Assembly: GCA_022843485.1 (NCBI GenBank)
Contig: JALHNM010000002.1
Span: forward strand, 94,238-158,237
Origin: Fimbriimonadaceae bacterium
GTDB lineage: Bacteria; Armatimonadota; Fimbriimonadia; Fimbriimonadales; Fimbriimonadaceae
Length of the DNA: 64,000 nt
Direction of reading: 5' to 3'
Each line of letters opens with the position of its first letter. The first letter of the stretch is position 1. This document shows positions 3,228 to 61,554 of the stretch, piece after piece. Position numbers and translations under genes: made by a program. The notes beneath the pieces are model-generated. The model searched no databases. It saw only the letters and a program-made list of their open reading frames with translations, and was not told where the DNA came from.

Positions 3228-3959
3228 ATGCTCTTCGAGCTTTCCCTCGCCCTGGTCGCGGCCTCGGCGGCCGTGCAGCAGGTGCAGGACGTGGCCGTCT
3301 CGCGCGGGGTGGTCGTTGGGGTGAACCGCACCCAGTCGGCCGACGCCGCAACGAGCCGCGGGGTCGTGATCGGGGTCGACCGCACCAGCAGCGGGAACGT
3401 GGCCACCAGCCGCGGCCTGGTGGTCGGGGTCTTCTCGATCTCGAACGCCAACGCCGCCGTTAGCCGGGGCGTGGTCGCGCTCTCGGGGCCGATCCCGCCG
3501 GACAAGGTGACGGTGCGCCTGGGCCGTCGCGAGGCCGGCGACCTGGCCAGCTTCGCCGCCCAGGACGGGAACGTCTACCGCGTCTGCAAGTTCATCGTGC
3601 CGAATCAGACGGTGCCACCGGTGAACGTCGAGGTCGAGGCCGTCTCGCCCGACCCGGTGCTCGGCCGGGTGGGCCTTCGCACGGTGGCCCGGATGACGGT
3701 GACCGGCTCGTTCCAGCAGCGCCTCGAGCTGTGGGACTGGTCCGCATCGCGCTGGGACCCCACGGACACGGTGGCCTCGGCGATCTCGACGACCCTCCGG
3801 ACCCTGGTCGTGCAATCGACCGGCAACGCGAACCGGTACCTGGACCCGAACCGTCGCCTCCGCGCCCGGTACACGGTTCGCCCGACGGGGCCGGTCGGGA
3901 CGAACGCGTGGTGCGTCGAGACGGACCAGGCGGTCTTCCTGACCGAGCCCGGCCCGTAG
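3228..3959 (+). CDS. secreted protein: signal peptide, 4 tandem ~20-aa repeats, shared C-terminal domain
   Basis: N-terminal hydrophobic signal MLFELSLALVAASAAV; repeats (A/T)SRGVV(V/I)GV(N/D)RT...; C-terminal ~150 aa homologous to the C-termini of the ORFs at 25356, 36769 and 46878. Confidence 0.6.
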   Translation: MLFELSLALVAASAAVQQVQDVAVSRGVVVGVNRTQSADAATSRGVVIGVDRTSSGNVATSRGLVVGVFSISNANAAVSRGVVALSGPIPPDKVTVRLGRREAGDLASFAAQDGNVYRVCKFIVPNQTVPPVNVEVEAVSPDPVLGRVGLRTVARMTVTGSFQQRLELWDWSASRWDPTDTVASAISTTLRTLVVQSTGNANRYLDPNRRLRARYTVRPTGPVGTNAWCVETDQAVFLTEPGP

Positions 3960-8152: not shown

Positions 8153-9400
8153 CTAGAGCCGCGGGTCGACGGGCTCGCTCTCAAGGGCGAGTACGGCGAA
8201 GGCGCACTCGTGGACCCGTCGCAACGGCTGCCGAGCGACGAACCGCTGGAGCCCTTCGAGCCCGAGCGCGAACTCGCGGAGGGCCAAGGAGCGCTTGGCT
8301 GCGAGCCCCCGTTGGCGGAGGCGGTCCAGGTTGTCCGGTGCAAGGTAGTCCGGGCCGTAGATAATGCGCAAGTACTCGAGTCCGCGGACCTTCAAGGCCG
8401 GTTGCGCCAGCCCCTTGCGCCCTTTGGCGACGAACGACGACGGTTTGACGACCATCCCCTCGCCGCCCGACCCGACCAAGTCCTCCCACCACTCGACCGC
8501 GGCGGCTACGGCGGACTCATCGGCGAGTTCGACCTCGCGCCAGGGCGTTGCGGACAGGAGTTGGCGATCGACGGAGCAGACCGAGGCCAGTTCGTCCATG
8601 TGCTGGGCGTGGGGGAGGACGGCCCAGACCCGTCCCTCCGTCGCCATCACGTGGAACGGGGCCAGCCGGTACCCGGCAAGCCCGTCCACGGGCCAGCAGT
8701 AGCGTCGGTAGGCCTCGACGTACAGGCCGAGGGCGGCGCGCCGGGAGCCCAAGCGGGCGGCGAGGGCATCGACGAGCGGATCGGGCCCCGCCGTCGCCGC
8801 TGCGGCGGAGACGGCGGCCTCGGCGGCGGCCAACGACGCAGCTCCCGCCGCCCCGACGGGGGCGTACTGGGTGCGGAGCAGCTCTTGGGCCTTGGCCGAC
8901 CAGGGCATCAGCTCGCAGTCGATCACTGCCCAGTCCGTGCGCCACGCTTCCCACCGCCCGGACTCACCGATGGCCTTCGCCACTCGACCGATCAGTGCCG
9001 CCTCGAGGTCTAGGTCGGTGAAGAACCGCCGACCGGTGCGGGTGAGGACGATTCCGGTCTCGCCGGTCTCGACTCCGAAGCGCGCGCGGGCCGCTTTGGC
9101 GTCGCGGCAGACGACGACGACGGCCCGCGACCCCATGTGCTTCTCCTCGAGCACGACTCGCTCGACGCCCTCGTCCCGGAAGTAGCTGAACGCCTCCTCT
9201 GGGCGCTCCAGGTAGCCGGGTTCCTTGCTCGTCTGGACGGGTGACATGGTCGGCGGGAGGTAGACCATCCACTTCGGGTTCGCGCCGTAGCGGCTGACGA
9301 CCTCGAGCGCGGCCGAGGAGTTCTGTGCCTGGATCGTCACGCGCGACATGAGGGATGTCTCGACATACCTGCGGCCGAGCACGTCCTCCATGTCGAGCAC
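8153..9400 (-). CDS. pnkp: Pnkp C-terminal RNA-ligase (nucleotidyltransferase) domain, separated from the kinase-phosphatase part by an in-frame stop
   Basis: Contains EEKHMGSR (lysine nucleotidyltransferase motif I-like) and a C-terminal region resembling bacterial Pnkp ligase domains; same reading frame as ORF 9416..10771, separated by TAA at 9416-9418 plus 5 codons. Confidence 0.75.
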   Translation of the reverse strand: MLDMEDVLGRRYVETSLMSRVTIQAQNSSAALEVVSRYGANPKWMVYLPPTMSPVQTSKEPGYLERPEEAFSYFRDEGVERVVLEEKHMGSRAVVVVCRDAKAARARFGVETGETGIVLTRTGRRFFTDLDLEAALIGRVAKAIGESGRWEAWRTDWAVIDCELMPWSAKAQELLRTQYAPVGAAGAASLAAAEAAVSAAAATAGPDPLVDALAARLGSRRAALGLYVEAYRRYCWPVDGLAGYRLAPFHVMATEGRVWAVLPHAQHMDELASVCSVDRQLLSATPWREVELADESAVAAAVEWWEDLVGSGGEGMVVKPSSFVAKGRKGLAQPALKVRGLEYLRIIYGPDYLAPDNLDRLRQRGLAAKRSLALREFALGLEGLQRFVARQPLRRVHECAFAVLALESEPVDPRL

Positions 9401-9415
9401 GTCGTCCGCTTCGTG

Positions 9416-10771
9416 TTAGGCGGAGAGGGTGGCGGCCTGGAGGGGCCGGGCCGGTTCGGCGTAGGTGGCCCGTGCCGGGACGCTGAGGGTCTCGCGCTCC
9501 GGCCAGCGCAGGGCTGTGAGCTTGCCTCCAAAGGCGCAGCCGGTGTCCACGCACAGTGTGTTGTTGAGCCACTGCGGTTCTAGGGTCGGGGTGTGCCCGT
9601 AGACCACGGCCGCCTTGCCTCTGTAGTCGAGCGCCCAGGGGTAGCGGACGGGCAGGCCGAATTCGTCGGACTCGCCGGTCGTTTCGCCGTAGAGGGCGAA
9701 GTCTCGGATCCGCCCCGAGGCCCGTCCTTGGTACCGCTCCTTCATTCCTGCATGCGCGACGACGAGTCTGCCCCCGTCGAAGACCAGGTGTGAGACTAAG
9801 CACCGGAGAAAGGTGCGTAGCCGGCCTTGTTCCTCCCCGGGGAGGGCTTCGACCTGGGCCACGGTCTCGGCCAGCCCGTGGTTGAGGCTGACTTTCTGGC
9901 GGTTCATGTGCTTGAGGAGCTTCTCCTCGTGGTTGCCGGGGACGCAGTAGCCCGCTCCCTGCGCCACGACGCTCATGACGAGGGTGAGGGCGCTGGCGGA
10001 GTGGGGCCCGCGGTCGACGAGGTCGCCGACGAACACGAGTTTGCGGCCTTCGGGGTGGCTCACTCGCCACGACCAGGCGAGTTCTTGCCATGGGCCGTCG
10101 TGCCGGCCGGGCGGCTCGCTGAGTGTGGTGGGTCGGGGCTCGTCGATCCGCTCGACCTCGTAGCCCAGGGCACCGAGGAGTTCGAGGAGCTCGACCAGAC
10201 ACCCGTGCACGTCGCCCACGATGTCGAATGGCCCCCGTTCATGGCTCTTGTCGTGCCAGCCCTTGTCGCGGACGATCTCGACCGAGTCGATTTCCTCGGG
10301 GGTCTTGAGGACTGTCACCGACCGGAACCCCTCTCGATTGAGGCCGCGCAGGCTTGCGCGGAGGTCGCGCGTGTGGTTGCGCACGACGTGCGGCCCGAAG
10401 TCGCGCCCGGGCCGGCCGACGTTGCGCTCTTGGCACACGGCCTCCGGGAGGGCGAAGACGATGGCGACGGCGGGGACGTCGTGCTCCTTGGCGTACTTCA
10501 GGAGCCCGGCCCGTGCGTGCGCTTGGACGTTGGTGGCGTCGACGACGGTCAGACGCCCGCGCCTGAGCCGGACGTCCAGCATCGTGTGGAGGAGTGCGAA
10601 GGCGTCGTTCGTGGCGTCCATCGAGGTTTCGTCGTCCGAGACCGCCGCTCGGCACCAGTCGGACGACAGCACCTCGGTCGGCAGGAAGTGGTGGGCGGCG
10701 AAGGTCGACTTACCGCTGCCGGAGGCGCCGATCAGTACCACGAGGCTCAGGTCGGGGACGTGGACGGTCAT
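9416..10771 (-). CDS. pnkp: Pnkp N-terminal polynucleotide 5'-kinase plus 2',3'-phosphatase (calcineurin-like) domains
   Basis: MTVHVPDLSLVVLIGASGSGKSTFAAHHF (P-loop kinase), then GDVHGC ... GDLVDRGP ... GNHE (metallophosphoesterase motifs). The ~300 codons upstream in the track ORF are an Arg/Pro-rich artefact. Confidence 0.85.
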   Translation of the reverse strand: MTVHVPDLSLVVLIGASGSGKSTFAAHHFLPTEVLSSDWCRAAVSDDETSMDATNDAFALLHTMLDVRLRRGRLTVVDATNVQAHARAGLLKYAKEHDVPAVAIVFALPEAVCQERNVGRPGRDFGPHVVRNHTRDLRASLRGLNREGFRSVTVLKTPEEIDSVEIVRDKGWHDKSHERGPFDIVGDVHGCLVELLELLGALGYEVERIDEPRPTTLSEPPGRHDGPWQELAWSWRVSHPEGRKLVFVGDLVDRGPHSASALTLVMSVVAQGAGYCVPGNHEEKLLKHMNRQKVSLNHGLAETVAQVEALPGEEQGRLRTFLRCLVSHLVFDGGRLVVAHAGMKERYQGRASGRIRDFALYGETTGESDEFGLPVRYPWALDYRGKAAVVYGHTPTLEPQWLNNTLCVDTGCAFGGKLTALRWPERETLSVPARATYAEPARPLQAATLSA

Positions 10772-12132
10772 CGCGTGAACACCGCCATCTGGCTCGGGGG
10801 GCCGTGCTCCTCGTGCTCGGGTCCCACGGGCCGGATTTCGAACGAGTAGCCGTGGGCACCCGCGACCCGGGCGCACCAGGCCTGGAACTCGGCCCGGTCC
10901 CACTCGAACCGGTGGTCGGAGTGTCGCACCGCCCCCGCCTCCATGCCGAAGACCGCGTTGTGCTCCCGGTTCGGCGTGGTGAGGACGACCGTCCGCGGGC
11001 GGGCCGACTCGAAGACGCACCGCTCGAAGGCGACGAGTCGCTCCGGGTCCAGGTGCTCGACGACCTCTACGATCGCCGCCGCGTCGAACCCTTCCAAGCG
11101 CCGGTCGCGATAGACGAGCGACCCATGGATGAGCCGGATCCGCTCGGCCTGGCTCGGTGGGAGCCGGTCGAGTTTGAGCCGCCGCTCGGCGCGGTCCAGC
11201 CAAGCCAGCGACACGTCCATCCCCACGATCTCCTTGAACTGCTTCTCGCGGAGGAGGAGCGTGAGGACTTTGCCCTCGCCGCAGCCAAGGTCGAGGACGC
11301 GGGAGGCTCCGCTGGCCACGAGCGCCTCGGCGGCGGCGGCTAGGCGTTGGTCGTGGAGCCGCTCCTTGGGCTCGGAGGCGGGTTCTTCCGGCTCGGCGTC
11401 GGGGTCTGGCTCGCCGTCCTGGGTGCTCAACCGGGTGAGGGCCTCTCGCGTGAGGTGGGCGGAACGCTCGAGGTAGCCCCGGACGATCGTCGTCTTCGCC
11501 GGGTGGTCGTTGAGCCACCCCTCGCCGGCGCGGAGGAGCTTCTCCACCTCGTTCCCGTCCAGCCAGTAGTGCTTGTCCCGGTCGAGCACGGGGATGAGGA
11601 CGTAGAGGTGGTTGAGCAAGGCCTGGAGCGTGACAGTCGCCCTTAGCCGGACGTCGTAGAGCGAGCTCTGGCCCCACTCCGGGAAGCGGTCGTCCAGGGG
11701 TAGATGCCGTGACTCAACCTCGTAGCCAAGGGGCTCGAAGAGCGAACGGAGCACGGCCTCGCCGCCGCGGCAGGGGACGCAGGGGAGCCCGGCCTCGAGC
11801 GGGATCGGTGTCTGCGCCAGCTCCGGCCGGTCCTTGCTGCGTCCGGCCATGGCGGTCGAGAAGAGGCCCTTGAGGGCGACGCAAAGGTAGGACGAGGCCA
11901 CGTAGGGCCGGTCGTTGACGTACTGGTCGAAGCGTCCTGGCCCTCGGACAAGCCCGACCGCGTCGACCTCGAGGATGAGCGCTGCCGTGCATCGCTCCTC
12001 GGTCCGCTCTGGGAAGACGACGGTCGCCCGGCCGAACGTGAGGTCGGCTTCGTGCGCGCGCCCCGGGTTCTTGTGGAGCAAGTAGCCGAGGTCGGTCGCG
12101 GGGCGATGGGTCGTCGTCAGAGTGAGCAGCAT
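10768..12132 (-). CDS. hen1: bacterial Hen1 RNA 3'-terminal 2'-O-methyltransferase
   Basis: MLLTLTTTHRPATDLGYLLHKNPGRAHEADLTFGRATVVFPE (bacterial Hen1 N-terminus); C-terminal SAM-MTase motif VLDLGCGEGKVLTLLL; stop overlaps the pnkp ATG (ATGA). Confidence 0.85.
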   Translation of the reverse strand: MLLTLTTTHRPATDLGYLLHKNPGRAHEADLTFGRATVVFPERTEERCTAALILEVDAVGLVRGPGRFDQYVNDRPYVASSYLCVALKGLFSTAMAGRSKDRPELAQTPIPLEAGLPCVPCRGGEAVLRSLFEPLGYEVESRHLPLDDRFPEWGQSSLYDVRLRATVTLQALLNHLYVLIPVLDRDKHYWLDGNEVEKLLRAGEGWLNDHPAKTTIVRGYLERSAHLTREALTRLSTQDGEPDPDAEPEEPASEPKERLHDQRLAAAAEALVASGASRVLDLGCGEGKVLTLLLREKQFKEIVGMDVSLAWLDRAERRLKLDRLPPSQAERIRLIHGSLVYRDRRLEGFDAAAIVEVVEHLDPERLVAFERCVFESARPRTVVLTTPNREHNAVFGMEAGAVRHSDHRFEWDRAEFQAWCARVAGAHGYSFEIRPVGPEHEEHGPPSQMAVFTR

Positions 12133-25355: not shown

Positions 25356-28106
25356 ATGCGTCACAGTCGTCTTCTCACGTTCGCCCTGTTCCTGGGCCTC
25401 GCCGTCGCCGCTCCGGCGGACTGGACCCTCTCTCTCTCCCAGGCTCTGAGCCGGCCGGACGTGGTCCGGGGCCTGCCGGGCCTTGACAAGGAGCGGAGTG
25501 CCGTGATGGCCGTCCGACAGCGGGCTCAGGCCCGGCTCGGGGCCGACGGCACGGCTCCGCCGAACGCCCTCTGGCGGGCGAAGCTCCAGCGGGACGCCCT
25601 CCTGGCGGCGCAGGGCGAAGAGCCCGCTCTGAGCGCCCTGAGCTGGACGAACTTCGGTCCGGGGAACATCGGCGGCCGGATCCGGGCCATCCTGATCCAC
25701 CCGACGGACCCTAACACCATGTGGCTCGGCTCGGTCGGTGGGGGCGTCTGGAAGTCCGTGAACGCGGGCGGCTCGTGGGTGCCGATGGACGATTTCCTGC
25801 CCGCCCTGAGCATCGGGTGCATGGAGTTGGACCCGAACGATCCGAACGTCCTTTATGCGGGCACCGGGGAAGGGTTCTTCGAGACGGTCGAGGGCTCCTC
25901 GAACACCGCCGCCCTGCGTGGGGCCGGGATCTTCCGAAGCACCGACGGGGGCACGACCTGGGCACAGATCCCGAGCACGGCGGGCATTGACTTCCAACTC
26001 GTCAACCGCCTCGCGATCGACCCGCGCGACTCGAACCGGATCATGGCCGCCACGAGCACCGGCCTCTTCCGCTCGATCGACCGGGGCCAGACGTGGCAGA
26101 AGACCTTCACCGGCTGGGTCTACGACCTGAAGCTGAACCCTAACAACCCCGATCAGGTCGTCGCCGGGCTGCACGCGGGGGCGGGCGTCATCCACTCCTC
26201 CGACAACGGGGTCACCTGGGGCAACTCGACCGGCATCACGGGCGCCCACCGGTGCGAGCTCGACTGGTCGAAGAGCGCGAACGGGACGGTCTACGCCGGG
26301 GTGAGCGCCAACGAACGGATCCGGATCTTCCGCTCGACCGACTTTGGCCGGACCTGGACGCTGCGGACGAGCGGGAGCGGGGTCTCGACGTACGAGTCGT
26401 ACAACTCGGCCCTCTGGGTCGACCCGACCAACGCGAACAACCTCGTCGTAGGCGGGGTCTTCGTCTACCGGAGCACCGACGGGGGTGTGACGGTGCCCCG
26501 CGTCTTCAACGCCATGCACCCGGACTTCCACGTCATCGTCGAGGCGCCCGGCTACGACGGTTCGACCAACCGGAGGGTCTACTTCGGGCACGACGGCGGC
26601 ATTTCCGTCGCGACCAACGTCTACGGCTCGACCTACACGGACCTCAACAACAACCTGGGGATCACCCAGTTCTACGGCGTGGCCGTTAACGACGCGACGG
26701 GCGTCATCGTGGCCGGGGCCCAGGATAACGGGACGCTCCGCTACACCGGCAACGTCAACACCTGGAGCGACCGGATCGGCGGCGACGGAATCTTCTGCGG
26801 CAGCGACCCGACCAACCCGAACTACTTCTACGGCGGCTACTACTACAACCGGATCTTCAGGTCCAGCGACGGCGGCGCGAACTTCAGCGACATCAGCACC
26901 GGGATCACCGACCGGGACAGCTCGACGAACTCGAACTTCATCGCCTACTTCACGCTCGACCCGAACGACCCGAACCGGATGCTCGCCTGCGGGCGGCGGT
27001 TGTGGCGGTCCAACACCGTCAAGGGCACGCCGGGGTGGACGATCATCAAGCAGCCCATCGCTCTCGGCCCCGGGGACGGGCCCGGCGACCCCCCGAACGC
27101 CCACATGAACTCGAACCCCCCGCAGAACATCTCGACCTGCACGATCGCGCGGGGTAACTCGAACCTCATCTGGGTGGGCCACAACAATGGGCAGCTGTGG
27201 AAGACGACGAACGGCACGGCCGGGACCCCGTCCTGGACGCGGGTGGACGGTGGCGTGACCCCGGGCCGTTGGGTGGGCCGGATCGTGATCGACCCGAACG
27301 ACACGAACCGGGTCTACGTGGCCTTTATGGGTTGGGAGGGGGACAACGTCTGGCGCACGACCGACGGCGGCGCGACGTGGCAGCAGGCGACGGGCGTCGG
27401 GGCGCGGAAGCTCCCGGCGGCGCCGGTCTCGGCGTTGGCGGTCGATCCGGCCCGGCCCGGCCGGCTCTTCGCCGGTACGGACGTTGGGCTCTTCACGACC
27501 TGGGACGACGGCCAGACCTGGTCGGTCGAGTCGCAGGGGCCAGGCACGGTCTCGATCGACGAGCTCGTCTGGCGAAACCCGACGACCCTCGTGGCCGCCA
27601 CGCACGGTCGCGGGGTCTGGCAGGCCAACGTGACCCCGGGGGCCAACGAGGCGAGCCCCGAGAGCTTCACGATCGCCAGGGGCGTCAACCAGGGCGGCGG
27701 TCTTGCTGAGCTCACGACGAGCGACGACGCCTACCTCAACGTCGGGCGGGGCCTGGTGTTGAACCAGCAGGAGTCCCCGGTGACCGTCGAGTTCTCGACC
27801 ACGGCCCGGACGTCGACCGCCCAGTCGATCGAGGTAACGCTGGAACTCGGGGCGAACACCGCCGGCCTCCAGCAGACGATCCAGGCTCGGGACACCCTAG
27901 CGGGAGCGTGGGTCGAGGTCGACCGGCGCAACGCGAGCCTGAGCGACCTCGTCACGACGGTGACCCTGCCGGGCAGTGCGAGCCGGTTCGTCGACGGGGC
28001 CACTCGAAGGGTCAGGCTCCGTGCCCTGGTTCGCCAGACCGGTCCGACGACCCTCTTGAACTGGTTCGTGAGGTTCGACCTGGTCCGCTGGCGGATCGTC
28101 GACTGA
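25356..28106 (+). CDS. large secreted BNR/Asp-box repeat protein with shared C-terminal domain
   Basis: Signal peptide MRHSRLLTFALFLGLAVAAPA; multiple S-x-D-x-G-x-T-W repeats (STDGGTTW, SIDRGQTW, SSDNGVTW, STDFGRTW, TTDGGATW, WDDGQTW); last ~150 aa homologous to the C-termini of ORFs 3228, 36769 and 46878. Confidence 0.75.
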   Translation: MRHSRLLTFALFLGLAVAAPADWTLSLSQALSRPDVVRGLPGLDKERSAVMAVRQRAQARLGADGTAPPNALWRAKLQRDALLAAQGEEPALSALSWTNFGPGNIGGRIRAILIHPTDPNTMWLGSVGGGVWKSVNAGGSWVPMDDFLPALSIGCMELDPNDPNVLYAGTGEGFFETVEGSSNTAALRGAGIFRSTDGGTTWAQIPSTAGIDFQLVNRLAIDPRDSNRIMAATSTGLFRSIDRGQTWQKTFTGWVYDLKLNPNNPDQVVAGLHAGAGVIHSSDNGVTWGNSTGITGAHRCELDWSKSANGTVYAGVSANERIRIFRSTDFGRTWTLRTSGSGVSTYESYNSALWVDPTNANNLVVGGVFVYRSTDGGVTVPRVFNAMHPDFHVIVEAPGYDGSTNRRVYFGHDGGISVATNVYGSTYTDLNNNLGITQFYGVAVNDATGVIVAGAQDNGTLRYTGNVNTWSDRIGGDGIFCGSDPTNPNYFYGGYYYNRIFRSSDGGANFSDISTGITDRDSSTNSNFIAYFTLDPNDPNRMLACGRRLWRSNTVKGTPGWTIIKQPIALGPGDGPGDPPNAHMNSNPPQNISTCTIARGNSNLIWVGHNNGQLWKTTNGTAGTPSWTRVDGGVTPGRWVGRIVIDPNDTNRVYVAFMGWEGDNVWRTTDGGATWQQATGVGARKLPAAPVSALAVDPARPGRLFAGTDVGLFTTWDDGQTWSVESQGPGTVSIDELVWRNPTTLVAATHGRGVWQANVTPGANEASPESFTIARGVNQGGGLAELTTSDDAYLNVGRGLVLNQQESPVTVEFSTTARTSTAQSIEVTLELGANTAGLQQTIQARDTLAGAWVEVDRRNASLSDLVTTVTLPGSASRFVDGATRRVRLRALVRQTGPTTLLNWFVRFDLVRWRIVD

Positions 28107-28202: not shown

Positions 28203-28436
28203 GTGCCCACGGAAGGGGCACGGGGTGCATGGATGGCACGGAGGCAGCTCAAAGTCGTCAGGCTGGTCGAACCCGACCTTTGCCTAGAATGTCGGTTCGC
28301 CCAAATGGCGTCCGTCGAGCTCAAGGACGGGTCGGTGCAGCGGATGATCCACTGCCGCCGGCTCGACTGCGACAACTGGGACTACTCGACGGCGGAGGCG
28401 GCTAAGGGCGTCCACGTGGACGACGACGGCGCCTGA
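28203..28436 (+). CDS. small Cys-containing hypothetical protein
   Basis: CLEC ... CRRLDC four-Cys arrangement; 77-aa ORF. Confidence 0.25.
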   Translation: MPTEGARGAWMARRQLKVVRLVEPDLCLECRFAQMASVELKDGSVQRMIHCRRLDCDNWDYSTAEAAKGVHVDDDGA

Positions 28437-29230
28437 GGCGGGGGCCGCCGGACGGGCACGGTCGTCCGTCCCGACGCCTCGAGGACCCCGCCCTCGAGCC
28501 GGACGCGGTCGACGAGAATGGCGTCCTGGAGGCCGAGGTCGCGGTCGAAGTCCACGACCGGGTTGAGCGTGTCGAGGAGCACCTTCGCCGCCGCCGGGTC
28601 GGCCCTGCGCCAGTCGAACCAGATCTTGGCCTCAGTGAGCGAGAGCTTCGTGCCGTCGATTGGGGCCAGGCGGGCGATGACGGTGAACGTGCTGTTCACG
28701 ATGAGGAACTCGCCGTAGCCCTCGACCCAGACGATGCCGTTGTAGACCTTGACCGTGACCCGCTTCACCTCCGGGAATTTGCGGAGGATGAAGGCGGCGA
28801 GGTCGGCCTCGCGAACGCGCACCGTCCCCGTGCCTACCCCAGCCCGACTGAGCCGGATGCTCTTCTCGCGCCGGGCGAGTCCCAGGTCGTAGCGACAGGC
28901 CGGGATCCGGGCGGAGAGGGATTCAACCCGCAGGCCGCGAAGCTCGAATTCGCGCAGCTCGATCCGCAGTTCGCCCAGCCGGCCGGCTTGGGATCGCTGC
29001 GGCTCGGTGAACAGAGGGAGCCCGTCGACCGAGAACCCTTGGGCCTGGATGGTGGCCCGCCGCACCTCCCCCCACGCCGCCCCGAGACCGGGTTCGACGT
29101 CCACCTTGACGGTGCCGCCCCTTAGCTGAGTGGCGATGTCCCGGGCGGCAGCGCCCTCGAAGACCCTGATCTCTCGATCGGCGAGCCCAGCCCCCAGCCC
29201 GAAGGCGACCAATGCGACTAGGGGCCCCAT
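28382..29230 (-). CDS. DUF2993 (LmeA-like) family protein
   Basis: N-terminal hydrophobic segment MGPLVALVAFGLGAGLA followed by the extended beta-rich region typical of DUF2993; a paralog lies at 56318..56833. Confidence 0.5.
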   Translation of the reverse strand: MGPLVALVAFGLGAGLADREIRVFEGAAARDIATQLRGGTVKVDVEPGLGAAWGEVRRATIQAQGFSVDGLPLFTEPQRSQAGRLGELRIELREFELRGLRVESLSARIPACRYDLGLARREKSIRLSRAGVGTGTVRVREADLAAFILRKFPEVKRVTVKVYNGIVWVEGYGEFLIVNSTFTVIARLAPIDGTKLSLTEAKIWFDWRRADPAAAKVLLDTLNPVVDFDRDLGLQDAILVDRVRLEGGVLEASGRTTVPVRRPPPQAPSSSTWTPLAASAVE

Positions 29231-36768: not shown

Positions 36769-39165
36769 ATGAACCTAAACACACGCTTCGCGCTCGTCGC
36801 GGCGTCCGTCCTGTGCGCGGTAGCTGGGAACTCCCAGAGCCCGCCGAGGCCGACGCAAGGGTCGTTGGCGCCCCCGACCGGCGCAGTTGTCTCGATCCCG
36901 AACACGCCGTGGAGGATCCCGAAGGGCAGCAACGAGGTCTTGGTCACGGCGACGCCGAAGACGATCGACACGTACACTCCCGTCATCGACTACCCGAACC
37001 CGACGCGGACTCCGAACGAGGACACCTCGATCCCCGGGCCGAAGATCCGGGTGTCGCAGGCCCCACTCGCCCAGCAGGTCGAGGATCAGGCGGGCATCTC
37101 GGCTGAGGCCCTCATCGAGAGCTGGGAAGGGATCGGCCAGACGAACCTCTCCCCGCCCGACCCCGCGTTGGGCGTCGGTATCGACCACGTCGTCACCGCC
37201 GTCAACGCCACTTGGCGAATCTCGGACAAGTGTGGCAACACGCTGTTCAACGCAGACTTCGGCGACTGGGTGGGCGATCCGGGCGGCTTCTACTTCGACC
37301 CGAAGGTCCAGTTCGACCCGTGGCGCCAGCGATGGGTGATCATGTACCACCTGTTCGACCAGTCGGCGCAGACCTCGCAGCTCGTTCTGGCCGTCAGCCA
37401 GCAGTCCAGCCCGATCGGCAACTACTGGATCTACCGGTTCAACGCGAACACGGGGAGCGGCGGGACCCTCGCCTGGGCCGACTACTACGACCTGGGCTAC
37501 TCCAACGAGGTCGTGACCGCCTCCGGTAACCAATTCCGGTACTCGGGCGGCTTCGGCGGCGGGTACGTGCGCTGGTGGAACCCGGCGGAGATCTATGCCG
37601 GTGCCGCCGCGACGATGCGCACGCGCAGCCTTGGGAACAACCCGGACGGTTCGGCAGCAGCGACCCCGCGCAGCGTCCGGCTCCTCCAGGACAGCCTGAC
37701 CGCGTTCATCAACTCGCGCGGCGGCGGTGGCAACCGGATCACCCTGTGGTGGTACATCGACCCCCTCGGCGCTGCGACCCAGAACGTTCGCGAGTACACG
37801 GTAGGAGGCTACTCGTCCCCGCCCGAAAGCCGACAGCCGAACGGGGCCTTCACCGACACCATCGACTGCCGACTCATGCCGGCCTACATGAAGGTCATCA
37901 ACAATGCCTTCTACGTGTTCACCGGACTCACGACGAACAACTCGAACCAGAACGGGTTCGCTACGACGCGCCTGCTCGTCATGGACGTGACGAACAGCAC
38001 GAACCCCCTCGACATCGACTTCTTCGCGACGGACGCGCACTCGTCCTTCCCGAGCCCGGCCCTCAACTACCAGAACACGTGTAACTGGGTCTTCACGCGG
38101 ACGAGCACCACGCTCAACCCGAACATCCGGTACGTGAACTGGGAGAACGGGGCCTTCACGAACGCGTCAAGTTCGCTGAGGACGAGCTCGTCGAGCTACG
38201 GCTCGGTGGCCGGTACGGTCTACCGGTGGGGCGACTACTTCGCGGGCGACCTCGACTGGGGAGACTACAACTTCCAAGGCGGCTCGGGCGGTCGCCAAAA
38301 GATGTGGGTCTACGCCGAGTACGCCGCGTCGACGTCCAATTGGGCCACCTTCGTGGGGTCCATGGGCTCGGCGGGGACGGCGGAGGGCGCCTTCAGCCTC
38401 ACGGGTAACGCCTACAACCTCGTCGGCTTCGAAGGCGGGTCGTTCAGCCCCGGCAGCCAGGCCTACACCGTGACGAACACGGGCCAGCTCGGCGCGATCT
38501 GGGAGCTCGAGCTCCCGAACTGGCTCTCGGCGAACGAGTCGGGCGGCACGCTCTACGCGGGCGGTTCGACGCCGTTCACGGTGACGCCCAACGCCGCCAC
38601 CAACGCCCTGACCTACGGGATCTACAACGGTAGCGTCCGGATCCGGAACTGCTTCAACGACGCCACGACCTCTCGGTCGGCCAGCGTCACCGTCCGCGCC
38701 CGGATCTCTCCGAACCGGGTGACCGTCCGACTCGGTCGGCGAGACGCGGGGACCCTCGCGAGCTTCGAGAGCCGAGACGGCAACGTGTACCGCGTCTGCC
38801 GGTTCGTCGTCCCGAACTCGACGACCCCGCCGATCAACGTCGAGCTCGAAGGGCAGGCTCCGGGAACCACCGCCTCGGCGATGGACTGGAACCTGACCTC
38901 GCGGATGGCCCAGTCCGGGTCGTTCCAGCAGATCATGGAGATCTGGGACTGGAACCTTAACAACTGGAGCCCGATCGACCGGCGGACCGACGCCATTAAC
39001 CAGACCCTGACAGCCCGGTCGCTCGCCGCGACTGGTGTAGTCAACCGCTACATCAACGCGAGCCGCGTCGTCCGTGCTCGCTACCGCATCCAGGCGACCG
39101 GCCCGGTCGGCGCCTCGGTCTGGTGCCAAGAGTCGGACTTCGCGAGCTGGACCTTCACGCCGTAA
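36769..39165 (+). CDS. large secreted protein of unknown function with shared C-terminal domain
   Basis: Signal peptide MNLNTRFALVAASVLCAVAG; 798 aa; N-terminal ~650 aa unrecognised; last 149 aa (38716..39162) homologous to the C-termini of ORFs 3228, 25356 and 46878. Confidence 0.7.
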   Translation: MNLNTRFALVAASVLCAVAGNSQSPPRPTQGSLAPPTGAVVSIPNTPWRIPKGSNEVLVTATPKTIDTYTPVIDYPNPTRTPNEDTSIPGPKIRVSQAPLAQQVEDQAGISAEALIESWEGIGQTNLSPPDPALGVGIDHVVTAVNATWRISDKCGNTLFNADFGDWVGDPGGFYFDPKVQFDPWRQRWVIMYHLFDQSAQTSQLVLAVSQQSSPIGNYWIYRFNANTGSGGTLAWADYYDLGYSNEVVTASGNQFRYSGGFGGGYVRWWNPAEIYAGAAATMRTRSLGNNPDGSAAATPRSVRLLQDSLTAFINSRGGGGNRITLWWYIDPLGAATQNVREYTVGGYSSPPESRQPNGAFTDTIDCRLMPAYMKVINNAFYVFTGLTTNNSNQNGFATTRLLVMDVTNSTNPLDIDFFATDAHSSFPSPALNYQNTCNWVFTRTSTTLNPNIRYVNWENGAFTNASSSLRTSSSSYGSVAGTVYRWGDYFAGDLDWGDYNFQGGSGGRQKMWVYAEYAASTSNWATFVGSMGSAGTAEGAFSLTGNAYNLVGFEGGSFSPGSQAYTVTNTGQLGAIWELELPNWLSANESGGTLYAGGSTPFTVTPNAATNALTYGIYNGSVRIRNCFNDATTSRSASVTVRARISPNRVTVRLGRRDAGTLASFESRDGNVYRVCRFVVPNSTTPPINVELEGQAPGTTASAMDWNLTSRMAQSGSFQQIMEIWDWNLNNWSPIDRRTDAINQTLTARSLAATGVVNRYINASRVVRARYRIQATGPVGASVWCQESDFASWTFTP

Positions 39166-39506: not shown

Positions 39507-40160
39507 ATGCACAAGACCCTACTCATCGCCGCGGCCCTTAGCGCTGCCGCCCTCGCCAACGCCACCTACATCGTCAACGGTGGGTTCGAGACCGGGAGCC
39601 CGGGCACCATCAGCGTGATGCGCTCGCCCTGGTACAGCTTCTACAACTCCCCCGACACCCTCGACACCACCGGGATCAACGGGTTCTCGACCGTCGGCTA
39701 CGACTTCGACGGCGCCGGGGCAGGAGAGGGCACTGTCTTCGCCCGCACGATCAATATCGGCTCGTACATCGAGGGCTTCGGGCAGACGATGACGACCGCC
39801 ATCACGGGCGGCACCGAGATCACGATCGGCGCCCTCCTCGCCTCGGAGCTGAACCAAGGCGGCGCCTATAACGCGACCGTCCTTGGCGGCATCGACGTGT
39901 TCCTGTACGACGGCGTCACGACCCAGTTCGTCGGCGCCCTCGCTGCGAGCACGGCCGTCCGAACCTGGCAGTCCCGCTCGCTGACGTTCGTGGCCCCCAC
40001 CGGGACCTGGACGGACATCGTCTTCAGCGGCCAGGCCACCGCGGGCGACATCTCCCAGACCGCCATCGACGCCATCAACGTCGAAGTGGTCCCTGAGCCG
40101 GCCACCCTGCTCGCCCTCGGGGCCGGCCTTGCTGCCCTGGCCCGCCGCCGCCGGAAGTAA
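39507..40160 (+). CDS. PEP-CTERM sorting-domain protein
   Basis: Signal peptide MHKTLLIAAALSAAALANA; C-terminus VVPEPATLLALGAGLAALARRRRK (PEP motif, TM helix, basic tail). Confidence 0.8.
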   Translation: MHKTLLIAAALSAAALANATYIVNGGFETGSPGTISVMRSPWYSFYNSPDTLDTTGINGFSTVGYDFDGAGAGEGTVFARTINIGSYIEGFGQTMTTAITGGTEITIGALLASELNQGGAYNATVLGGIDVFLYDGVTTQFVGALAASTAVRTWQSRSLTFVAPTGTWTDIVFSGQATAGDISQTAIDAINVEVVPEPATLLALGAGLAALARRRRK

Positions 40161-46877: not shown

Positions 46878-48335
46878 ATGCCCTGTTCTTCATTGCCTCT
46901 AAAGCGGAGTTCCCGTTCGGCTCTCATCGGCTCGCTCCTGCTCCTCTCGCTCACCCTCCCGGTCGTCGGCGCGGCCCAGGGCCCTCCCCCGTGGCTCTGG
47001 AAGGCGAGCGGCTCGGACCCGGCGAACGCGGTCGGTTTCTCGGCGGACGGCACTGCGTTCGCGAAGGGCACGACCGGCTCCGACGTGCTCGTATTCGACT
47101 CGATCGAGGGTTCTCCGAGCCAGGTGCTCTCCGGTCACACGGGACAAGTCTTGGCCATCGCGTTCCCCAACAGCGGCGACGTCGTCGCCACCGGCTCGTT
47201 CGACCGCTCTGTTCGGCTCTGGAACTGGCGGACCGGCGCGCTCATCCGGTCGCTCCCCGGCCACTCCGCCCCGGTGAACGCCATCGCGTTCTCGCCGAAC
47301 GGTAACCTCTTGGCATCGGCTTCCACCGACCGGACGGTCCGCATTTGGCGTGTCGGGGATGGGGCTCTGCTTAACACGTTGACAGGCCACACGGACGCCG
47401 TCAATTCGCTGGCCTGGGGTTCTTCGAACGTCCTCGCGAGCGGCTCGAGCGACCTCTCGATCCGTCTCTGGGACCCGGCCACCGGGATTCTCCTGCGCAC
47501 GCTGACCGGGCACGCGGGTCCCATCAGCTCGCTCGCCTTCAACACCGACCTCTCTCAGCTCGCCTCGGGCTCGTGGGACGCCACGGTCAAGCTGTGGAAC
47601 CCGCAGACCGGCGACCTGTTCCGGACTATCCCGGGCCACACCGACTGGGTTCTCGGGCTTGTCTTCACTGGTGACCGCAGGACGCTCGTCTCGGGTTCGC
47701 TCGACGGCACCATCAGGTTCTGGAACCCGCAGGACGGCACACTGCGCAAGCGCTACGACGAGGAGACCGGTGCCGTGCTCGGCCTCGCCTTCGGTTTCGA
47801 CGACGCCCTCCTCGGCATCGCCGCCGAACAGTCCGGCGTGGCCCGGAACCCGTTCGGCGTACCGGACGTGCAGTTCCCGATCGCGTTCCAGGCCCTGCGC
47901 GGCCGAGTCGATCGTGGCGATCTCACGAGCCTGCGAGGCGATGACTCGAACCCGCTCCGCGTCTGCCGGTTCATCGTCCCGAACGACCCGCTGCGGGTCG
48001 TCGAGCTCCGGTACACGCTGCGCACGATCACGCCGAAGCCCGGCGCCCTCGTCGTGGCCGTCCGCTCGCGGGCCTCGGTCGGTGGGTTGCTCCAGCAGAC
48101 GCTCGAGCTGTTCGACTGGGCCGAGAACCGCTTCGACCCGACGGACGTGCTCCAGGGGAACCTCAACACGACCTTCACGAGCCGGGTCTTGACGGCCACG
48201 GGCGATCTGACCCGTTACGTCGACTCCAACCGGCGCATCCGGGTCCAGCAGACCATGCGCATCGTCGGCCCCATCCCGAACCCGAACCCGTGCCTCGAGA
48301 CGACGCTCGTCCGAGCCACGGTCACCCCGTCCTAA
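46878..48335 (+). CDS. secreted WD40-repeat protein with shared C-terminal domain
   Basis: Signal peptide ...LIGSLLLLSLTLPVVGAAQG; seven WD repeats (GHTGQVLAIAF ... SFDRSVRLWN etc.); last ~140 aa (47913..48332) homologous to the C-termini of ORFs 3228, 25356 and 36769. Confidence 0.75.
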   Translation: MPCSSLPLKRSSRSALIGSLLLLSLTLPVVGAAQGPPPWLWKASGSDPANAVGFSADGTAFAKGTTGSDVLVFDSIEGSPSQVLSGHTGQVLAIAFPNSGDVVATGSFDRSVRLWNWRTGALIRSLPGHSAPVNAIAFSPNGNLLASASTDRTVRIWRVGDGALLNTLTGHTDAVNSLAWGSSNVLASGSSDLSIRLWDPATGILLRTLTGHAGPISSLAFNTDLSQLASGSWDATVKLWNPQTGDLFRTIPGHTDWVLGLVFTGDRRTLVSGSLDGTIRFWNPQDGTLRKRYDEETGAVLGLAFGFDDALLGIAAEQSGVARNPFGVPDVQFPIAFQALRGRVDRGDLTSLRGDDSNPLRVCRFIVPNDPLRVVELRYTLRTITPKPGALVVAVRSRASVGGLLQQTLELFDWAENRFDPTDVLQGNLNTTFTSRVLTATGDLTRYVDSNRRIRVQQTMRIVGPIPNPNPCLETTLVRATVTPS

Positions 48336-48351: not shown

Positions 48352-49806
48352 CTAGCCGCCCCGCAGCAGCTGCAACACGCTCTGCGGGGCCTGGTTGGCC
48401 TGGGCCAGCACCGAGACGCCGCTCTGGCGAAGGATCTGGACCTTCGTGAACTCCGTCATCTCCTTGGCGAGGTCGGCGTCACGGATCTGGCTCTCGGAGG
48501 CCGTGATGTTCTCCTGGGCGACGGCCAACGAACGGCCGGTCGACTCGAGGAAGTTCTTCTGGAAGGAACCGAGGTTGCCGCGGAGGGCCGAGAGCTGGGA
48601 GATCGCGTCGTCGATGATCGCCATCGCGTCGCGGGCGCCTTGCGGCGACCGCAGGTCGATTGTCGAGAGGTTCTGTCCCGCGACGGCGGCCGTCCCGAGC
48701 CGAGAGGGGTCGACGCTGGGGATCGAGAACGTAGTTGCCTGGTCCGAGTTGCTGCCGATCTGGAAGCGCATGCTCCCCACGTTCAGTTGCCCGACCACGG
48801 TCGCGGCGCCGACCGCGTTGCCCGCCACGGTAACCACGAGCTTGTTCCCGCTCGGCGAGGTCAGCGTCAGGCCGTCGTCGTTCGGGCCGACCCCGCCCGT
48901 GAAGGTCTCCGTCTGGGTGCCCGAGGGCTCGACGGGGACGGTCACGTCGTAGACCGCGTTCGCCCCGACCGCTGGGGTGGCGCCGGAACCGTTGTTGAGG
49001 ATTGTCCCTGTCTCGAGGTAGTTGATCGGGTAGCGCGAGCCGAACTTCGTGGACGTGAGCGTGAACTGGAGCGGGGTGCCGGCGACCGTCGCCGAGACGC
49101 CGGTCGTGGCCGACTGCTGGTTGACCATCGCGAGCACGTCGTTGACGGTCATGCCCGCTTGGACCGTGAAGGCCTGGCCGTTCAGGACGAACGTGCCTGC
49201 GCCCACCGTCGCGCCCGTGCTGGCAAAGGTGGTCGCCAAGGCCCCGGTCGTCGTCCGGGTCGCTGCTGTGGTCTGGTCGATGGTGATGGATCCCGTCCGT
49301 ACCGTCGCGCCGTTGAACGTCGAGCCGACGAACGCGCTGGAGACGAGGTCGGTGCGGGTGACGGAGGTTGAGACCCCGGAGCTCCCGTTGAGCAGCCGCT
49401 TGCTCCCCCAGGTCGTCTGCTCGGCGATGCGCCGGATCGAGTCGACGACCGACCGCACCTGGGTCTGGTTCGCCTCGAGCTGTGCCGCGTCGATGGTCGC
49501 GGTGTTGGCCGAGTGGACAGCGAGGCCGCGGACGTCCCGGAGCAGGCGCGAGATCTCGTCCATTGCGCCCTCCGCCGTCCGTGCCATGTTGACCGCGTCT
49601 TGCACGTTGCGGCTCGCCTGCTCGATCCCCTTGATCTGGGACCTCAGGCCTTCGCTGATGATGAGGCCGGCCGGGTCGTCGGCGGCCGTGTTGATCCGCA
49701 GGCCGGTGGCGAGGCGGGTCACCGAGCCCGACATCATGGCGTCGGTCTGGCTCAGGTACCGCATCGCGGTCATCGCGGGGACGTTGGTATTGATCCTCAG
49801 GCTCAC
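48352..49806 (-). CDS. fliC: flagellin
   Basis: Conserved D0/D1 termini: MSLRINTNVPAMTAMRYLSQ ... GLRINTAADDPAGL at the N-end and LGSFQKNFLESTGRSLAVAQENITASESQIRDADLAKEMTEFTKVQILRQSGVSVLAQANQAPQSVLQLL at the C-end; variable Thr/Gly-rich middle. Confidence 0.9.
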   Translation of the reverse strand: MSLRINTNVPAMTAMRYLSQTDAMMSGSVTRLATGLRINTAADDPAGLIISEGLRSQIKGIEQASRNVQDAVNMARTAEGAMDEISRLLRDVRGLAVHSANTATIDAAQLEANQTQVRSVVDSIRRIAEQTTWGSKRLLNGSSGVSTSVTRTDLVSSAFVGSTFNGATVRTGSITIDQTTAATRTTTGALATTFASTGATVGAGTFVLNGQAFTVQAGMTVNDVLAMVNQQSATTGVSATVAGTPLQFTLTSTKFGSRYPINYLETGTILNNGSGATPAVGANAVYDVTVPVEPSGTQTETFTGGVGPNDDGLTLTSPSGNKLVVTVAGNAVGAATVVGQLNVGSMRFQIGSNSDQATTFSIPSVDPSRLGTAAVAGQNLSTIDLRSPQGARDAMAIIDDAISQLSALRGNLGSFQKNFLESTGRSLAVAQENITASESQIRDADLAKEMTEFTKVQILRQSGVSVLAQANQAPQSVLQLLRGG

Positions 49807-60993: not shown

Positions 60994-61554
60994 ATGAAGA
61001 AGCTTGCTGTGCTGGCGCTCGTCGCCGTTTCGTCCTTCTCGTTCGCTCAGTCCGCCGTTTGGGACGGCGCCCTGACCTCGGCCGACCCCGTTTACAACCG
61101 AACAGTCGAGGACGGCAGCGGCCTGTCCGGCGTCGGCACGGCCGTCTTCTACGACGTCCAGCCGTTCTTCGTGCTGGCCACGGGTGAGTACACGATGGAG
61201 GTCCGGGCCCGGAACGCCGGCGAGGACACCTTCGCGTTCATCTACCGCGACCTCTTCAACCCGGGTGCCCCGACGGTCAACTTCGTCGGCGGCAACGACG
61301 ACTGGCTCGACTTCACCACCTCGAAGATCGGTGGTGGCAACGGCTCCCCGACCACGCTGATCCTCACTTCGGGCGTGCAGTACTTCGCGATCACGACGAG
61401 CTTCAGCAACGGCGACCAGTTCGCCTACGACAACAACGTCACGCCGCTGTTCCAGGGCGGTGAAGCCCGGCTCGGCATCGTTCCGGAGCCGGCGACGATG
61501 CTCGCGCTCGGAGCGGGCCTCGCGGCGATCGCCGCCCGTCGCCGCCGCAAGTAA
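60994..61554 (+). CDS. PEP-CTERM sorting-domain protein
   Basis: Signal peptide MKKLAVLALVAVSSFSFAQ; C-terminus IVPEPATMLALGAGLAAIAARRRRK. Confidence 0.8.
   Translation: MKKLAVLALVAVSSFSFAQSAVWDGALTSADPVYNRTVEDGSGLSGVGTAVFYDVQPFFVLATGEYTMEVRARNAGEDTFAFIYRDLFNPGAPTVNFVGGNDDWLDFTTSKIGGGNGSPTTLILTSGVQYFAITTSFSNGDQFAYDNNVTPLFQGGEARLGIVPEPATMLALGAGLAAIAARRRRK

Follow-up and report, generated by a model that had tools for sequence, protein, structure and literature searches.

An Armatimonadota-centred family of C-terminal domains on diverse signal-peptide-bearing proteins

The C-terminal elements most readily compared with the domain reported here differ in size and build. The PEP-CTERM motif (PF07589) spans ~25 residues and combines the PEP motif with a transmembrane helix and a basic, Arg-rich tail, the GC-type dockerin NF041540 is ~65 residues long, rich in Cys and Asp and ends in Gly-Cys, and the T9SS C-terminal domain is a seven-stranded, Ig-like fold of 70–100 residues. 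T9SS is, to our knowledge, restricted to the FCB group. Armatimonadota is a poorly studied diderm phylum, and we know of nothing established about how its members display or retain exported proteins. Armatimonadetes have been counted among the diderm Terrabacteria with OmpM (bioRxiv 10.1101/2021.05.31.446380), and their exported proteins therefore face an outer membrane. By definition, the uncharacterised Pfam family PF14741 (GH114_assoc) lies N-terminal to a GH114 catalytic domain; a structural paper on GH114 and GH191 describes GH114 enzymes as alpha-galactosaminidases and does not mention the associated domain. Literature searches on PF14741, on the GC-type dockerin and on Armatimonadota with PEP-CTERM returned no papers.

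Four homologous C-termini in one window

The window, a 64,000-nucleotide stretch of DNA from a Fimbriimonadaceae bacterium, contains four plus-strand genes, A, B, C and D, that agree exactly with NCBI gene calls on a single contig of 445,359 bp. Each ends in one copy of a ~150-residue C-terminal domain, hereafter CTD. Their features are listed below; CTD boundaries are HMM envelopes, and E-values of CTDs refer to an independent profile built from 120 relatives, none of them from the window.

Gene A: 3228..3959, + strand; 243 aa; probable signal peptide, four SRG(V/L)V repeats (aa 25, 43, 61 and 79; period 18 aa), then CTD; exact NCBI gene call
CTD A: 3495..3950, + strand; aa 90-241 of 243; E 1.6e-61
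Gene B: 25356..28106, + strand; 916 aa; signal peptide, BNR/Sortilin-Vps10 (F510_1955-like) propeller (PF15902, E 1.4e-19; NF045728, E 1.1e-36, under cutoff), CTD; exact NCBI gene call
CTD B: 27654..28103, + strand; aa 767-916; no cysteines; E 1.2e-33
Gene C: 36769..39165, + strand; 798 aa; signal peptide, disordered Pro-rich region of ~100 aa, then folded modules and CTD; exact NCBI gene call
Gene C, 7-bladed beta-propeller: about aa 115-535
Gene C, beta-sandwich between propeller and CTD: about aa 540-646
CTD C (the interval flagged in the earlier note): 38707..39162, + strand; aa 647-798; predicted jelly-roll; E 1.7e-58
Cys677 codon TGC: 38797..38799, + strand; first half of a putative disulfide, motif RVCRF, profile column 31
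Cys786 codon TGC: 39124..39126, + strand; second half of the putative disulfide, motif WCxExD, profile column 140
Gene D: 46878..48335, + strand; 485 aa; signal peptide, WD40 propeller (PF00400, E 2.5e-57), CTD; exact NCBI gene call from the ATG at 46878
CTD D: 47874..48329, + strand; aa 333-484 of 485; E 1.7e-46

The earlier note on this DNA, made from the sequence alone, had aligned the C-termini of these four ORFs, and both of our searches bear the alignment out. When the last 160 residues of each protein were compared by phmmer with a six-frame translation of the window (698 sequences), A and C matched each other at E = 1e-49/1e-51, A and D at 1e-28/1e-30 and C and D at ~1e-21, and CTD B matched the other three copies at 7e-7 to 8e-12; the next-best window sequences had E>0.2. 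The independent profile retrieved the same four copies (1e-61 to 1e-33), with the next-best window match at 0.39 and a bias of at most 1.7 bits. These values show that the similarity does not stem from low complexity, a concern that the earlier note had raised, and that the window holds exactly four copies; neither search yielded a fifth. Chance similarity is ruled out by the same scores. DNA identity between the copies is at most 69%, except in a 28-nt motif-coding stretch, so the copies are old paralogues, and recent duplication or gene conversion is ruled out.

Several details of the first description needed adjustment. The proposed start of the domain in B (27654) coincides with the HMM envelope, whereas those in A and C lay 9 nt late and that in D 39 nt late. 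The quoted motif blocks hold mainly for A, C and D; CTD B is a divergent subtype (27% identity) that lacks both cysteines. Signal peptides, which we judged by reading the sequence, are canonical in B, C and D, whereas A has only a hydrophobic h-region without a basic n-region. The two PEP-CTERM proteins said to lie in the window are indeed present (PF07589, E 4e-7); as positive controls they match a model that gave no match to genes A–D.

A lineage-restricted family with exchangeable C-termini

By exhaustive HMM search, the family comprises 2004 cluster representatives at E≤1e-3, of which 870 reach E≤1e-10; a word-indexed homologue search, insensitive by comparison, returned just 6 and 9 hits. 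The strictly C-terminal position proposed in the earlier note was found throughout: all 125 proteins examined carry a single copy that stops 0–3 residues before the end. Among the best 150 representatives, the domain is C-terminal in all but P0138, which has trailing sequence and looks frameshifted. By a crude test, at least 88 of these 125 have a hydrophobic stretch near the N-terminus. Pro is the last residue in 49% of members, and the CTD proteins of the window terminate in a beta-strand (...WxxxP). Stand-alone members or members with a tiny passenger also exist, namely gene A and P0085 (153 aa).

The family is Armatimonadota-centred and lineage-restricted, in line with the lineage specificity first suggested. 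A motif taken from a 6-sequence alignment, which 27% of the family representatives carry, located 27 genome loci; at all 27 the CTD is C-terminal and the genome is an Armatimonadota MAG. Counted by this motif, and thus by a signature of 27% of representatives, each MAG has 3–7 members. Every source-named member reached through the CTD likewise comes from an Armatimonadota MAG, and one CTD protein of a "Planctomycetota" MAG was reached via the gene B passenger. A motif scan of viral contigs found no CTD relatives.

The passengers are as diverse as the earlier note had proposed, and they bear signal peptides. HAF repeats account for 9 of 94 passengers and NHL modules of the ScyF PEP-CTERM type for 4 of 94, and ~5 of 94 resemble the putative glycosidase F510_1955 at scores under cutoff. 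The per-family summaries otherwise list propellers, HAF repeats, Laminin_G_3 and the like, with no other recurrent family. CAZyme-like modules are few, and most passengers are not CAZymes.

The passenger of gene B reveals what can occupy the place of the CTD. Its Armatimonadota orthologues end in a CTD of the same cysteine-less subtype (E 1e-27 to 1e-37). In Phycisphaerae/Planctomycetota, orthologues with ~50% identical passengers carry the GC-type dockerin NF041540 there instead; this model matched 8 of 10 tested orthologues, 3 of them above cutoff. Other orthologues have an EF-hand dockerin-like tail or nothing at the C-terminus. A second exchange involves the PEP-CTERM protein L027:3248-3952, the passenger of which is shared with the CTD protein P0089 (34% identity, E 6e-23). 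These cases show that, where passengers are homologous, the CTD can be exchanged for C-termini of known anchor type; the shared slot is a matter of C-terminal modularity, not of identical function.

Predicted fold and candidate functions

The CTD has no adequate model in Pfam-A (2025 copy) or NCBIfam 20.0. NCBIfam gave no match, and PF14741 was the only recurrent Pfam match, ranking first for 6 of 10 domain-only queries in a consistent register (domain position approximately profile position plus 11 to 15). Against a cutoff of 22 bits, the isolated domains of C, B and A scored 23.6, 17.7 and 13.6 bits and that of D did not match; as full-length proteins, A and C scored 12.9 and 14.0 bits and B and D did not match. 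Two further members reach the cutoff (22.8 and 22.2 bits) and most fall under it, and among 27 diverse members 5 match at E≤0.01 and 22 lie above this value. In precomputed Pfam annotation, PF14741 is absent from B-type members and nothing is listed for the other members returned. The borderline scores and constant register suggest that the CTD and PF14741 are probably remote homologues. Given that PF14741 is, by its Pfam name, attached to GH114 enzymes, this provides a hint of glycan binding by the CTD; the GH114 catalytic family itself appeared in no Pfam output for CTD proteins, which for two alignment scans took the form of per-family summaries. Domain-only queries matched no Pfam CBM model even at E≤10, and a sequence-profile search of the PDB gave no relative, only noise (ephrin receptor ligand-binding domain, E ~1; DhaK, 0.05). 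The earlier note had not recognised the domain as a described family. This stands as far as Pfam, NCBIfam and PDB are concerned, and the family is previously unmodelled, but the borderline link to PF14741 means that it is not wholly an orphan.

The predicted fold of the ~150 residues is a beta-sandwich of ~10 strands. The model is a lectin-like jelly-roll of the galactose-binding-domain or CBM type, and the structures closest to it are CBMs and glycan-binding modules of phage tailspikes and baseplates. A carbohydrate-binding module, which the earlier note had offered as an alternative, thus agrees with the predicted fold but not with the sequence, which matches no CBM family. Profile columns 31 and 140 are both Cys in 116 proteins and neither is Cys in 9, with no protein having one alone (n=125); this pairing points to a disulfide between the cysteines of RVC(K/R)F and WCxExD. 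Most of the near-invariant positions are structural, namely Gly, Pro, Cys and buried aromatics together with Asp/Asn, which could hold a structural Ca2+. Candidate sugar-binding residues, D/N81-W82 and R114-Y115, are conserved at just 50–70%. The domain is globular and soluble, has no transmembrane segment and adjoins its passenger directly, with no low-complexity linker. Across 163 orthologous pairs, identity is 48% in the CTD vs 41% in the passenger, so conservation of the CTD equals or exceeds that of its passenger.

We tentatively favour a reading, at somewhat less than even probability, in which the CTD is a localisation module. CTD proteins would be exported by Sec, as their signal peptides suggest, and the CTD would then fold to a compact jelly-roll locked by the RVC(K/R)F-WCxExD disulfide. 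The folded domain would bind non-covalently to a constituent that the cell envelope or matrix offers to all members, with a glycan of the surface or of exopolysaccharide as the likeliest candidate, and would thereby hold varied passengers, mainly beta-propellers, HAF repeats and ScyF/NHL-like modules, at the cell surface. Its role would be that of PEP-CTERM, dockerins or SLH domains elsewhere. The anchoring or sorting logic of the earlier note gains from the dockerin in the same slot on orthologous passengers and from the PEP-CTERM passenger swap; cell-surface location, export beyond the periplasm, processing, the nature of the ligand and tethering are parts that we infer. The signal peptide and disulfide are just as compatible with a periplasmic location, and gene A and P0085 fit a free lectin as well as an anchor.

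These two small proteins, almost without passenger, also suit a possible but improbable alternative, in which the CTD is a lectin or CBM that directs its passenger to an external polysaccharide or to the surface of another organism, be it substrate or prey, in the manner of classical CBMs and phage receptor-binding modules. The CBM-like jelly-roll, its nearest structures among CBMs and phage glycan-binding modules, the weak homology to a family named for its association with glycoside hydrolases and the few F510_1955-like putative glycosidases among the passengers all fit such targeting. It sits poorly with the prevalence of non-CAZyme passengers and with a single copy that is never internal or N-terminal (125/125), which is unusual for CBMs. 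Moreover, in other lineages these passengers end in a dockerin or PEP-CTERM, which are localisation devices rather than substrate binders.

We consider it unlikely that the CTD is instead the recognition or attachment signal of a new sorting or surface-display pathway of these diderm Terrabacteria, comparable in function to the T9SS CTD or to PEP-CTERM/exosortase. A dedicated machinery with its genes at another site of the genome would recognise the domain, carry folded cargo through the outer membrane or onto it, and perhaps cut the domain off or link it covalently. The absolute C-terminal position in single copy on diverse cargo, the several members per genome (by the same partial motif count), the lineage restriction, the outer membrane faced by these OmpM-bearing diderms and the frequent terminal Pro would all be expected of such a signal. 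However, models of the T9SS CTD or of other sorting signals find no match, the fold is unlike that of the T9SS CTD, and no cleavage motif is conserved among CTD members besides a Pro at the domain start. The dedicated sortase or transporter that the earlier note had proposed to look for is not co-located: across the 27 loci and the window, no gene family recurs in more than three loci, and no conserved neighbouring peptidase, translocon or partner was found.

Least probable is a purely structural role that involves no targeting, in which the CTD would help its passenger to fold or stay stable as a cap, mediate oligomerisation or be simply a mobile beta-sandwich spread by shuffling. Fold-determining residues do dominate the conserved positions and the CTD does abut its passenger, but the passengers are structurally unrelated, one being an 18-aa-repeat peptide, and thus offer no common fold to cap. 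Dockerin-type modules also replace the CTD on orthologous passengers, and the CTD is under purifying selection no weaker than theirs.

Read as a localisation module, the CTD marks a probable surface or matrix proteome of Armatimonadota and provides a testable tag for surface display. It merits its own model in domain databases, where its proteins are now "hypothetical". If dedicated machinery exists, the CTD is part of a new sorting system; if not, it represents a novel family of lectin or CBM-like type with a distant link to PF14741, itself uncharacterised.

Comparison with named systems

Compared with PF14741, the CTD lies at the opposite end of its proteins, being always C-terminal. Its predicted fold resembles that of CBM4, CBM16, CBM22, CBM59, CBM61 and CBM32, which are beta-sandwiches with a galactose-binding-domain-like fold. 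At 4–14% identity, however, it belongs to no CBM family by sequence, and whereas CBMs are appended to CAZymes, the CTD mostly is not and is obligately terminal and single-copy. Phage receptor-binding modules, namely TmpF of the phi812 baseplate (9euf_H/9eui_D) and the C-terminal domains of the K2-2 and CBA120 tailspikes, share the jelly-roll at 8–14% identity; unlike these, CTD host proteins are cellular and bear the signal peptides of Sec export.

The T9SS CTD and the Armatimonadota domain are alike in logic, each being a folded beta-sandwich that forms the very C-terminal end of many diverse exported proteins in one lineage. The two differ in size, strand number and topology (Ig-like rather than jelly-roll). 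TIGR04183/PF18962 and TIGR04131 matched none of the four window proteins and were absent from the per-family summaries that cover the remaining 121, and no PorV, PorU or SprA was recognised among the scanned ORFs, which cover part of the window.

The GC-type dockerin occupies the same C-terminal slot on ~50% identical BNR-propeller passengers, yet has no likeness in sequence or fold to the 150-aa jelly-roll; neither NF041540 nor any other dockerin model matched the scanned CTD proteins. PEP-CTERM differs in being a short membrane-spanning motif rather than a globular domain, and the two never occur in one protein (125 proteins). In their distribution the two run in parallel: both are strictly C-terminal on secreted proteins with overlapping passengers (HAF repeats and ScyF-like NHL), and they occur side by side within genomes, as they do in this window.

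Four copies of a C-terminal domain

Genes A (3228-3959), B (25356-28106), C (36769-39165) and D (46878-48335), all on the + strand of the window, encode proteins that end in a common domain of about 150 residues (the CTD), each preceded by its own passenger. The four translations are as the earlier note described them and are identical to the NCBI gene calls on a single contig of 445,359 bp. The homology it proposed for their C-termini is borne out both by phmmer and by a profile of 120 relatives from which the window sequences were excluded. When the 160-residue tails were searched against a six-frame translation of the window, A and C matched at E about 1e-50, A and D at about 1e-29, C and D at about 1e-21, and B matched the other three at 7e-7 to 8e-12; beyond these four, no match fell below E 0.2. 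With the profile, E-values for A-D ranged from 1.6e-61 to 1.2e-33, against 0.39 for the best-scoring other ORF, and composition bias was negligible. The window therefore contains exactly four copies, and a low-complexity match as the cause of the similarity is ruled out. The HMM envelopes are as follows.

3495-3950, + strand: CTD copy A
27654-28103, + strand: CTD copy B
38707-39162, + strand: CTD copy C
47874-48329, + strand: CTD copy D

Copy B represents a divergent subtype (27% identity; B-type). DNA identity among the copies is at most 69%; they are therefore old paralogues, and an origin by recent duplication is ruled out.

The view that the CTD belongs to no described family stands for NCBIfam 20.0, which has no matching model, and needs qualifying for Pfam-A, where the functionally uncharacterised PF14741 (GH114_assoc) is the sole recurrent, borderline match. 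PDB sequence profiles gave no meaningful match. Against full-length proteins, PF14741 scored 12.9 and 14.0 bits, under its cutoff of 22, and full-length scans found it in 5/27 locus proteins and 6/94 representative CTD proteins. With the domain alone as query, it was the best match in six of ten cases, in consistent register, and reached the cutoff for copy C (23.6) and two other members (22.8 and 22.2); A (13.6), B (17.7) and D fell below it. Only 5 of 27 diverse members matched at E<=0.01. These scores point to a probable remote homology rather than coverage by an existing model. In contrast to the Pfam definition, the CTD is placed C-terminally and without a GH114 domain, the reverse arrangement. 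We found no literature on PF14741.

Family size, position and predicted fold

Searched exhaustively with HMMER, a set of 1.84 billion cluster representatives yielded 2004 proteins at E<=1e-3, of which 870 passed E<=1e-10 and 92 passed E<=1e-30. Across 185,579 species genomes, a motif-seeded scan confirmed 27 loci, all in six MAGs that carry the labels Fimbriimonadaceae, Armatimonadota or Chthonomonadaceae, at two to seven loci per genome; because only 25 of 94 family representatives carry the seeding motif, the true copy number per genome is probably several-fold higher. The few source-named members found via the CTD itself are all proteins of Fimbriimonadaceae or Armatimonadetes MAGs. A protein of a Planctomycetota-labelled MAG (P0261; contig JBCCFB010000289.1, locus L028:1870-4674) has a B-type CTD (E 5.5e-18), so that either the domain occurs in a second phylum or the contig was misbinned; its gene adjoins one for a PF07638 ECF sigma factor. 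A motif scan of viral contigs found no relative.

The strictly C-terminal position claimed earlier held throughout the 125 proteins examined (94 representatives, 27 locus proteins and the four window proteins): each has a single CTD, followed by 0-3 residues after the domain envelope. Among the top 150 representatives, trailing sequence occurs only in P0138, which leaves the CTD mid-domain into unrelated basic residues and, from its sequence, looks frameshifted. No low-complexity linker precedes the CTD in the members examined; a proline stands at its start in 82% of members and at its end in 49%. By a crude test, at least 88/125 proteins have a hydrophobic N-terminal stretch, and several of the remainder show one on inspection or are fragments.

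An AlphaFold2 model of copy C, built from a nine-sequence alignment, is all-beta with about ten strands (pLDDT 91.6, pTM 0.85); in the full-length model of protein C, the CTD is again a separate domain, following a seven-bladed propeller and a beta-sandwich. The predicted fold is a galactose-binding-domain-like jelly-roll without a close structural relative. Of the 125 proteins, 116 have cysteines at both profile columns 31 and 140 (Cys677 and Cys786 in protein C), nine, copy B among them, have neither, and none has just one. This all-or-none pattern is a disulfide signature, which, with the predicted signal peptides, places the CTD outside the cytoplasm. The near-invariant profile positions (G10, G15, D24, C31, F33, V35-P36-N37, P42, G71, D/N81, R125, G132-P133, W139-C140, D144 and W148) look mainly structural. 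By analogy with many CBMs, D24, N37, D/N81 and D144 could form a putative structural Ca2+ site.

Passengers and the C-terminal slot

The passengers, described earlier as unrelated, are so by sequence, yet three of the four contain propellers. Gene A's passenger (3228-3494, + strand) consists almost entirely of four SRG(V/L)V-containing repeats spaced at exactly 18 residues (residues 25, 43, 61 and 79); similar short repeats occur in the CTD proteins P0002, P0003 and P0012. Gene B's is a BNR/Sortilin-Vps10 propeller, F510_1955 glycosylhydrolase-like but under the model cutoff, and gene D's is a WD40 propeller. Outside the window, recurrent passengers include HAF repeats (9/94) and ScyF "PEP-CTERM protein"-type NHL (4/94). 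Among the 121 non-window members, DUF3466, F510_1955-like, Laminin_G_3, ScyD/E, WD40 and other propellers also recur; no other family does, and the family summaries contain essentially no classical CAZyme catalytic domains. Conservation is slightly higher for the CTD than for the passenger across orthologous pairs (48% and 41% identity, respectively); the CTD scores higher in 127 of the 163 pairs, which are not independent.

The most informative result of the analysis is that, judged by sequence comparison, known localisation modules take the place of the CTD at the C-terminus of related passengers. The B passenger is encoded at 25356-27650. Its Armatimonadota homologues, about 900 residues long, end in a B-type CTD (E 1e-27 to 1e-37). 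In Phycisphaerae/Planctomycetota, orthologues with about 50% identical passengers (P0184, P0188, P0239, P0264, P0277 and others) end in a roughly 65-residue NF041540 module, "GC-type dockerin domain-anchored protein" (8 of 10 tested, three above the curated cutoff). Two further homologues, P0172 and P0177, have EF-hand dockerin-like repeats at the C-terminus, and some others have no C-terminal extension. In different phyla, this single passenger family is joined to three or more distinct kinds of C-terminal module. In a separate case, a PEP-CTERM protein of a Fimbriimonadaceae MAG (L027:3248-3952) and the CTD protein P0089 have the whole passenger in common (34% identity, E 6e-23). The two PEP-CTERM proteins reported earlier in the window are confirmed (PF07589, E 4e-7):

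39507-40160, + strand: small PEP-CTERM protein, tail VPEPATLLALGAGLAALARRRRK
60994-61554, + strand: small PEP-CTERM protein, tail VPEPATMLALGAGLAAIAARRRRK

Because the window encodes both, the host genome presumably runs an exosortase system beside the CTD family. PEP-CTERM and CTD proteins are found together in the same genomes and within the window itself, and none of the 125 proteins examined carries both termini.

Genomic context and candidate functions

The window is ordinary chromosome, with genes for ClpP, flagellin, a Hen1/Pnkp RNA-repair pair, a radical-SAM MqnC-like protein, a GT2 glycosyltransferase, an epimerase and others.

8153-12132, - strand: Pnkp/Hen1 bacterial RNA-repair pair (Hen1 at 10768-12132; PF12623, E 8e-103)
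28382-29230, - strand: LmeA-like phospholipid-binding protein (PF11209, E 1.7e-10), about 280 nt downstream of gene B
48352-49806, - strand: flagellin (PF00669 and PF00700), convergent with gene D, 17 nt past its stop codon

ORF 8153-9400 (- strand) has a match to the ligase domain of Pnkp alone (PF16542, E 6e-167), and the rest of Pnkp seemingly lies in overlapping ORFs of other frames (8964-10202 and 9416-11677); the split could be a frameshift or merely a mis-chosen ORF. Counts of four CTD genes in the 64-kb window, three in locus L006 and two each in L011 and L020 suggest that the family is loosely clustered. The last three loci, from Armatimonadota MAGs (SZAS-3, JPNG_metabat.53), have their two or three CTD genes within 12 kb.

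Armatimonadetes are counted with the diderm Terrabacteria that have OmpM (bioRxiv 10.1101/2021.05.31.446380); exported proteins must therefore either be periplasmic or cross the outer membrane. Our best, tentative explanation is that the CTD would act as a localisation module by binding one shared constituent of the envelope or matrix, a glycan being the most plausible. We favour it because the CTD is obligately terminal, single-copy, disulfide-locked and of predicted lectin fold, and because its Sec-exported passengers are mostly non-enzymatic, with termini exchangeable with dockerin or PEP-CTERM. A CBM or lectin aimed at a substrate or prey would share this binding chemistry and differ in its target; the domain architecture and passenger types disfavour it, and we consider it unlikely. 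More doubtful still is a secretion signal like the T9SS CTD with dedicated machinery: the position rule agrees with it, but no machinery, motif or fold resemblance supports it. The sortase or transporter envisaged in the earlier note was not linked to CTD genes in any of 28 neighbourhoods, and no non-CTD gene family recurred in more than three of them. A purely structural role ranks as least likely.

The CTD family is both large and lineage-restricted; it is effectively unannotated, its one database link being a borderline match to a Pfam family that is itself uncharacterised. Were a dedicated sorting machinery to be identified, the CTD would define a new system of protein sorting in a diderm phylum that has been little studied. 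As it stands, its fold and its logic each have precedents, and we do not regard it as a categorically new system.
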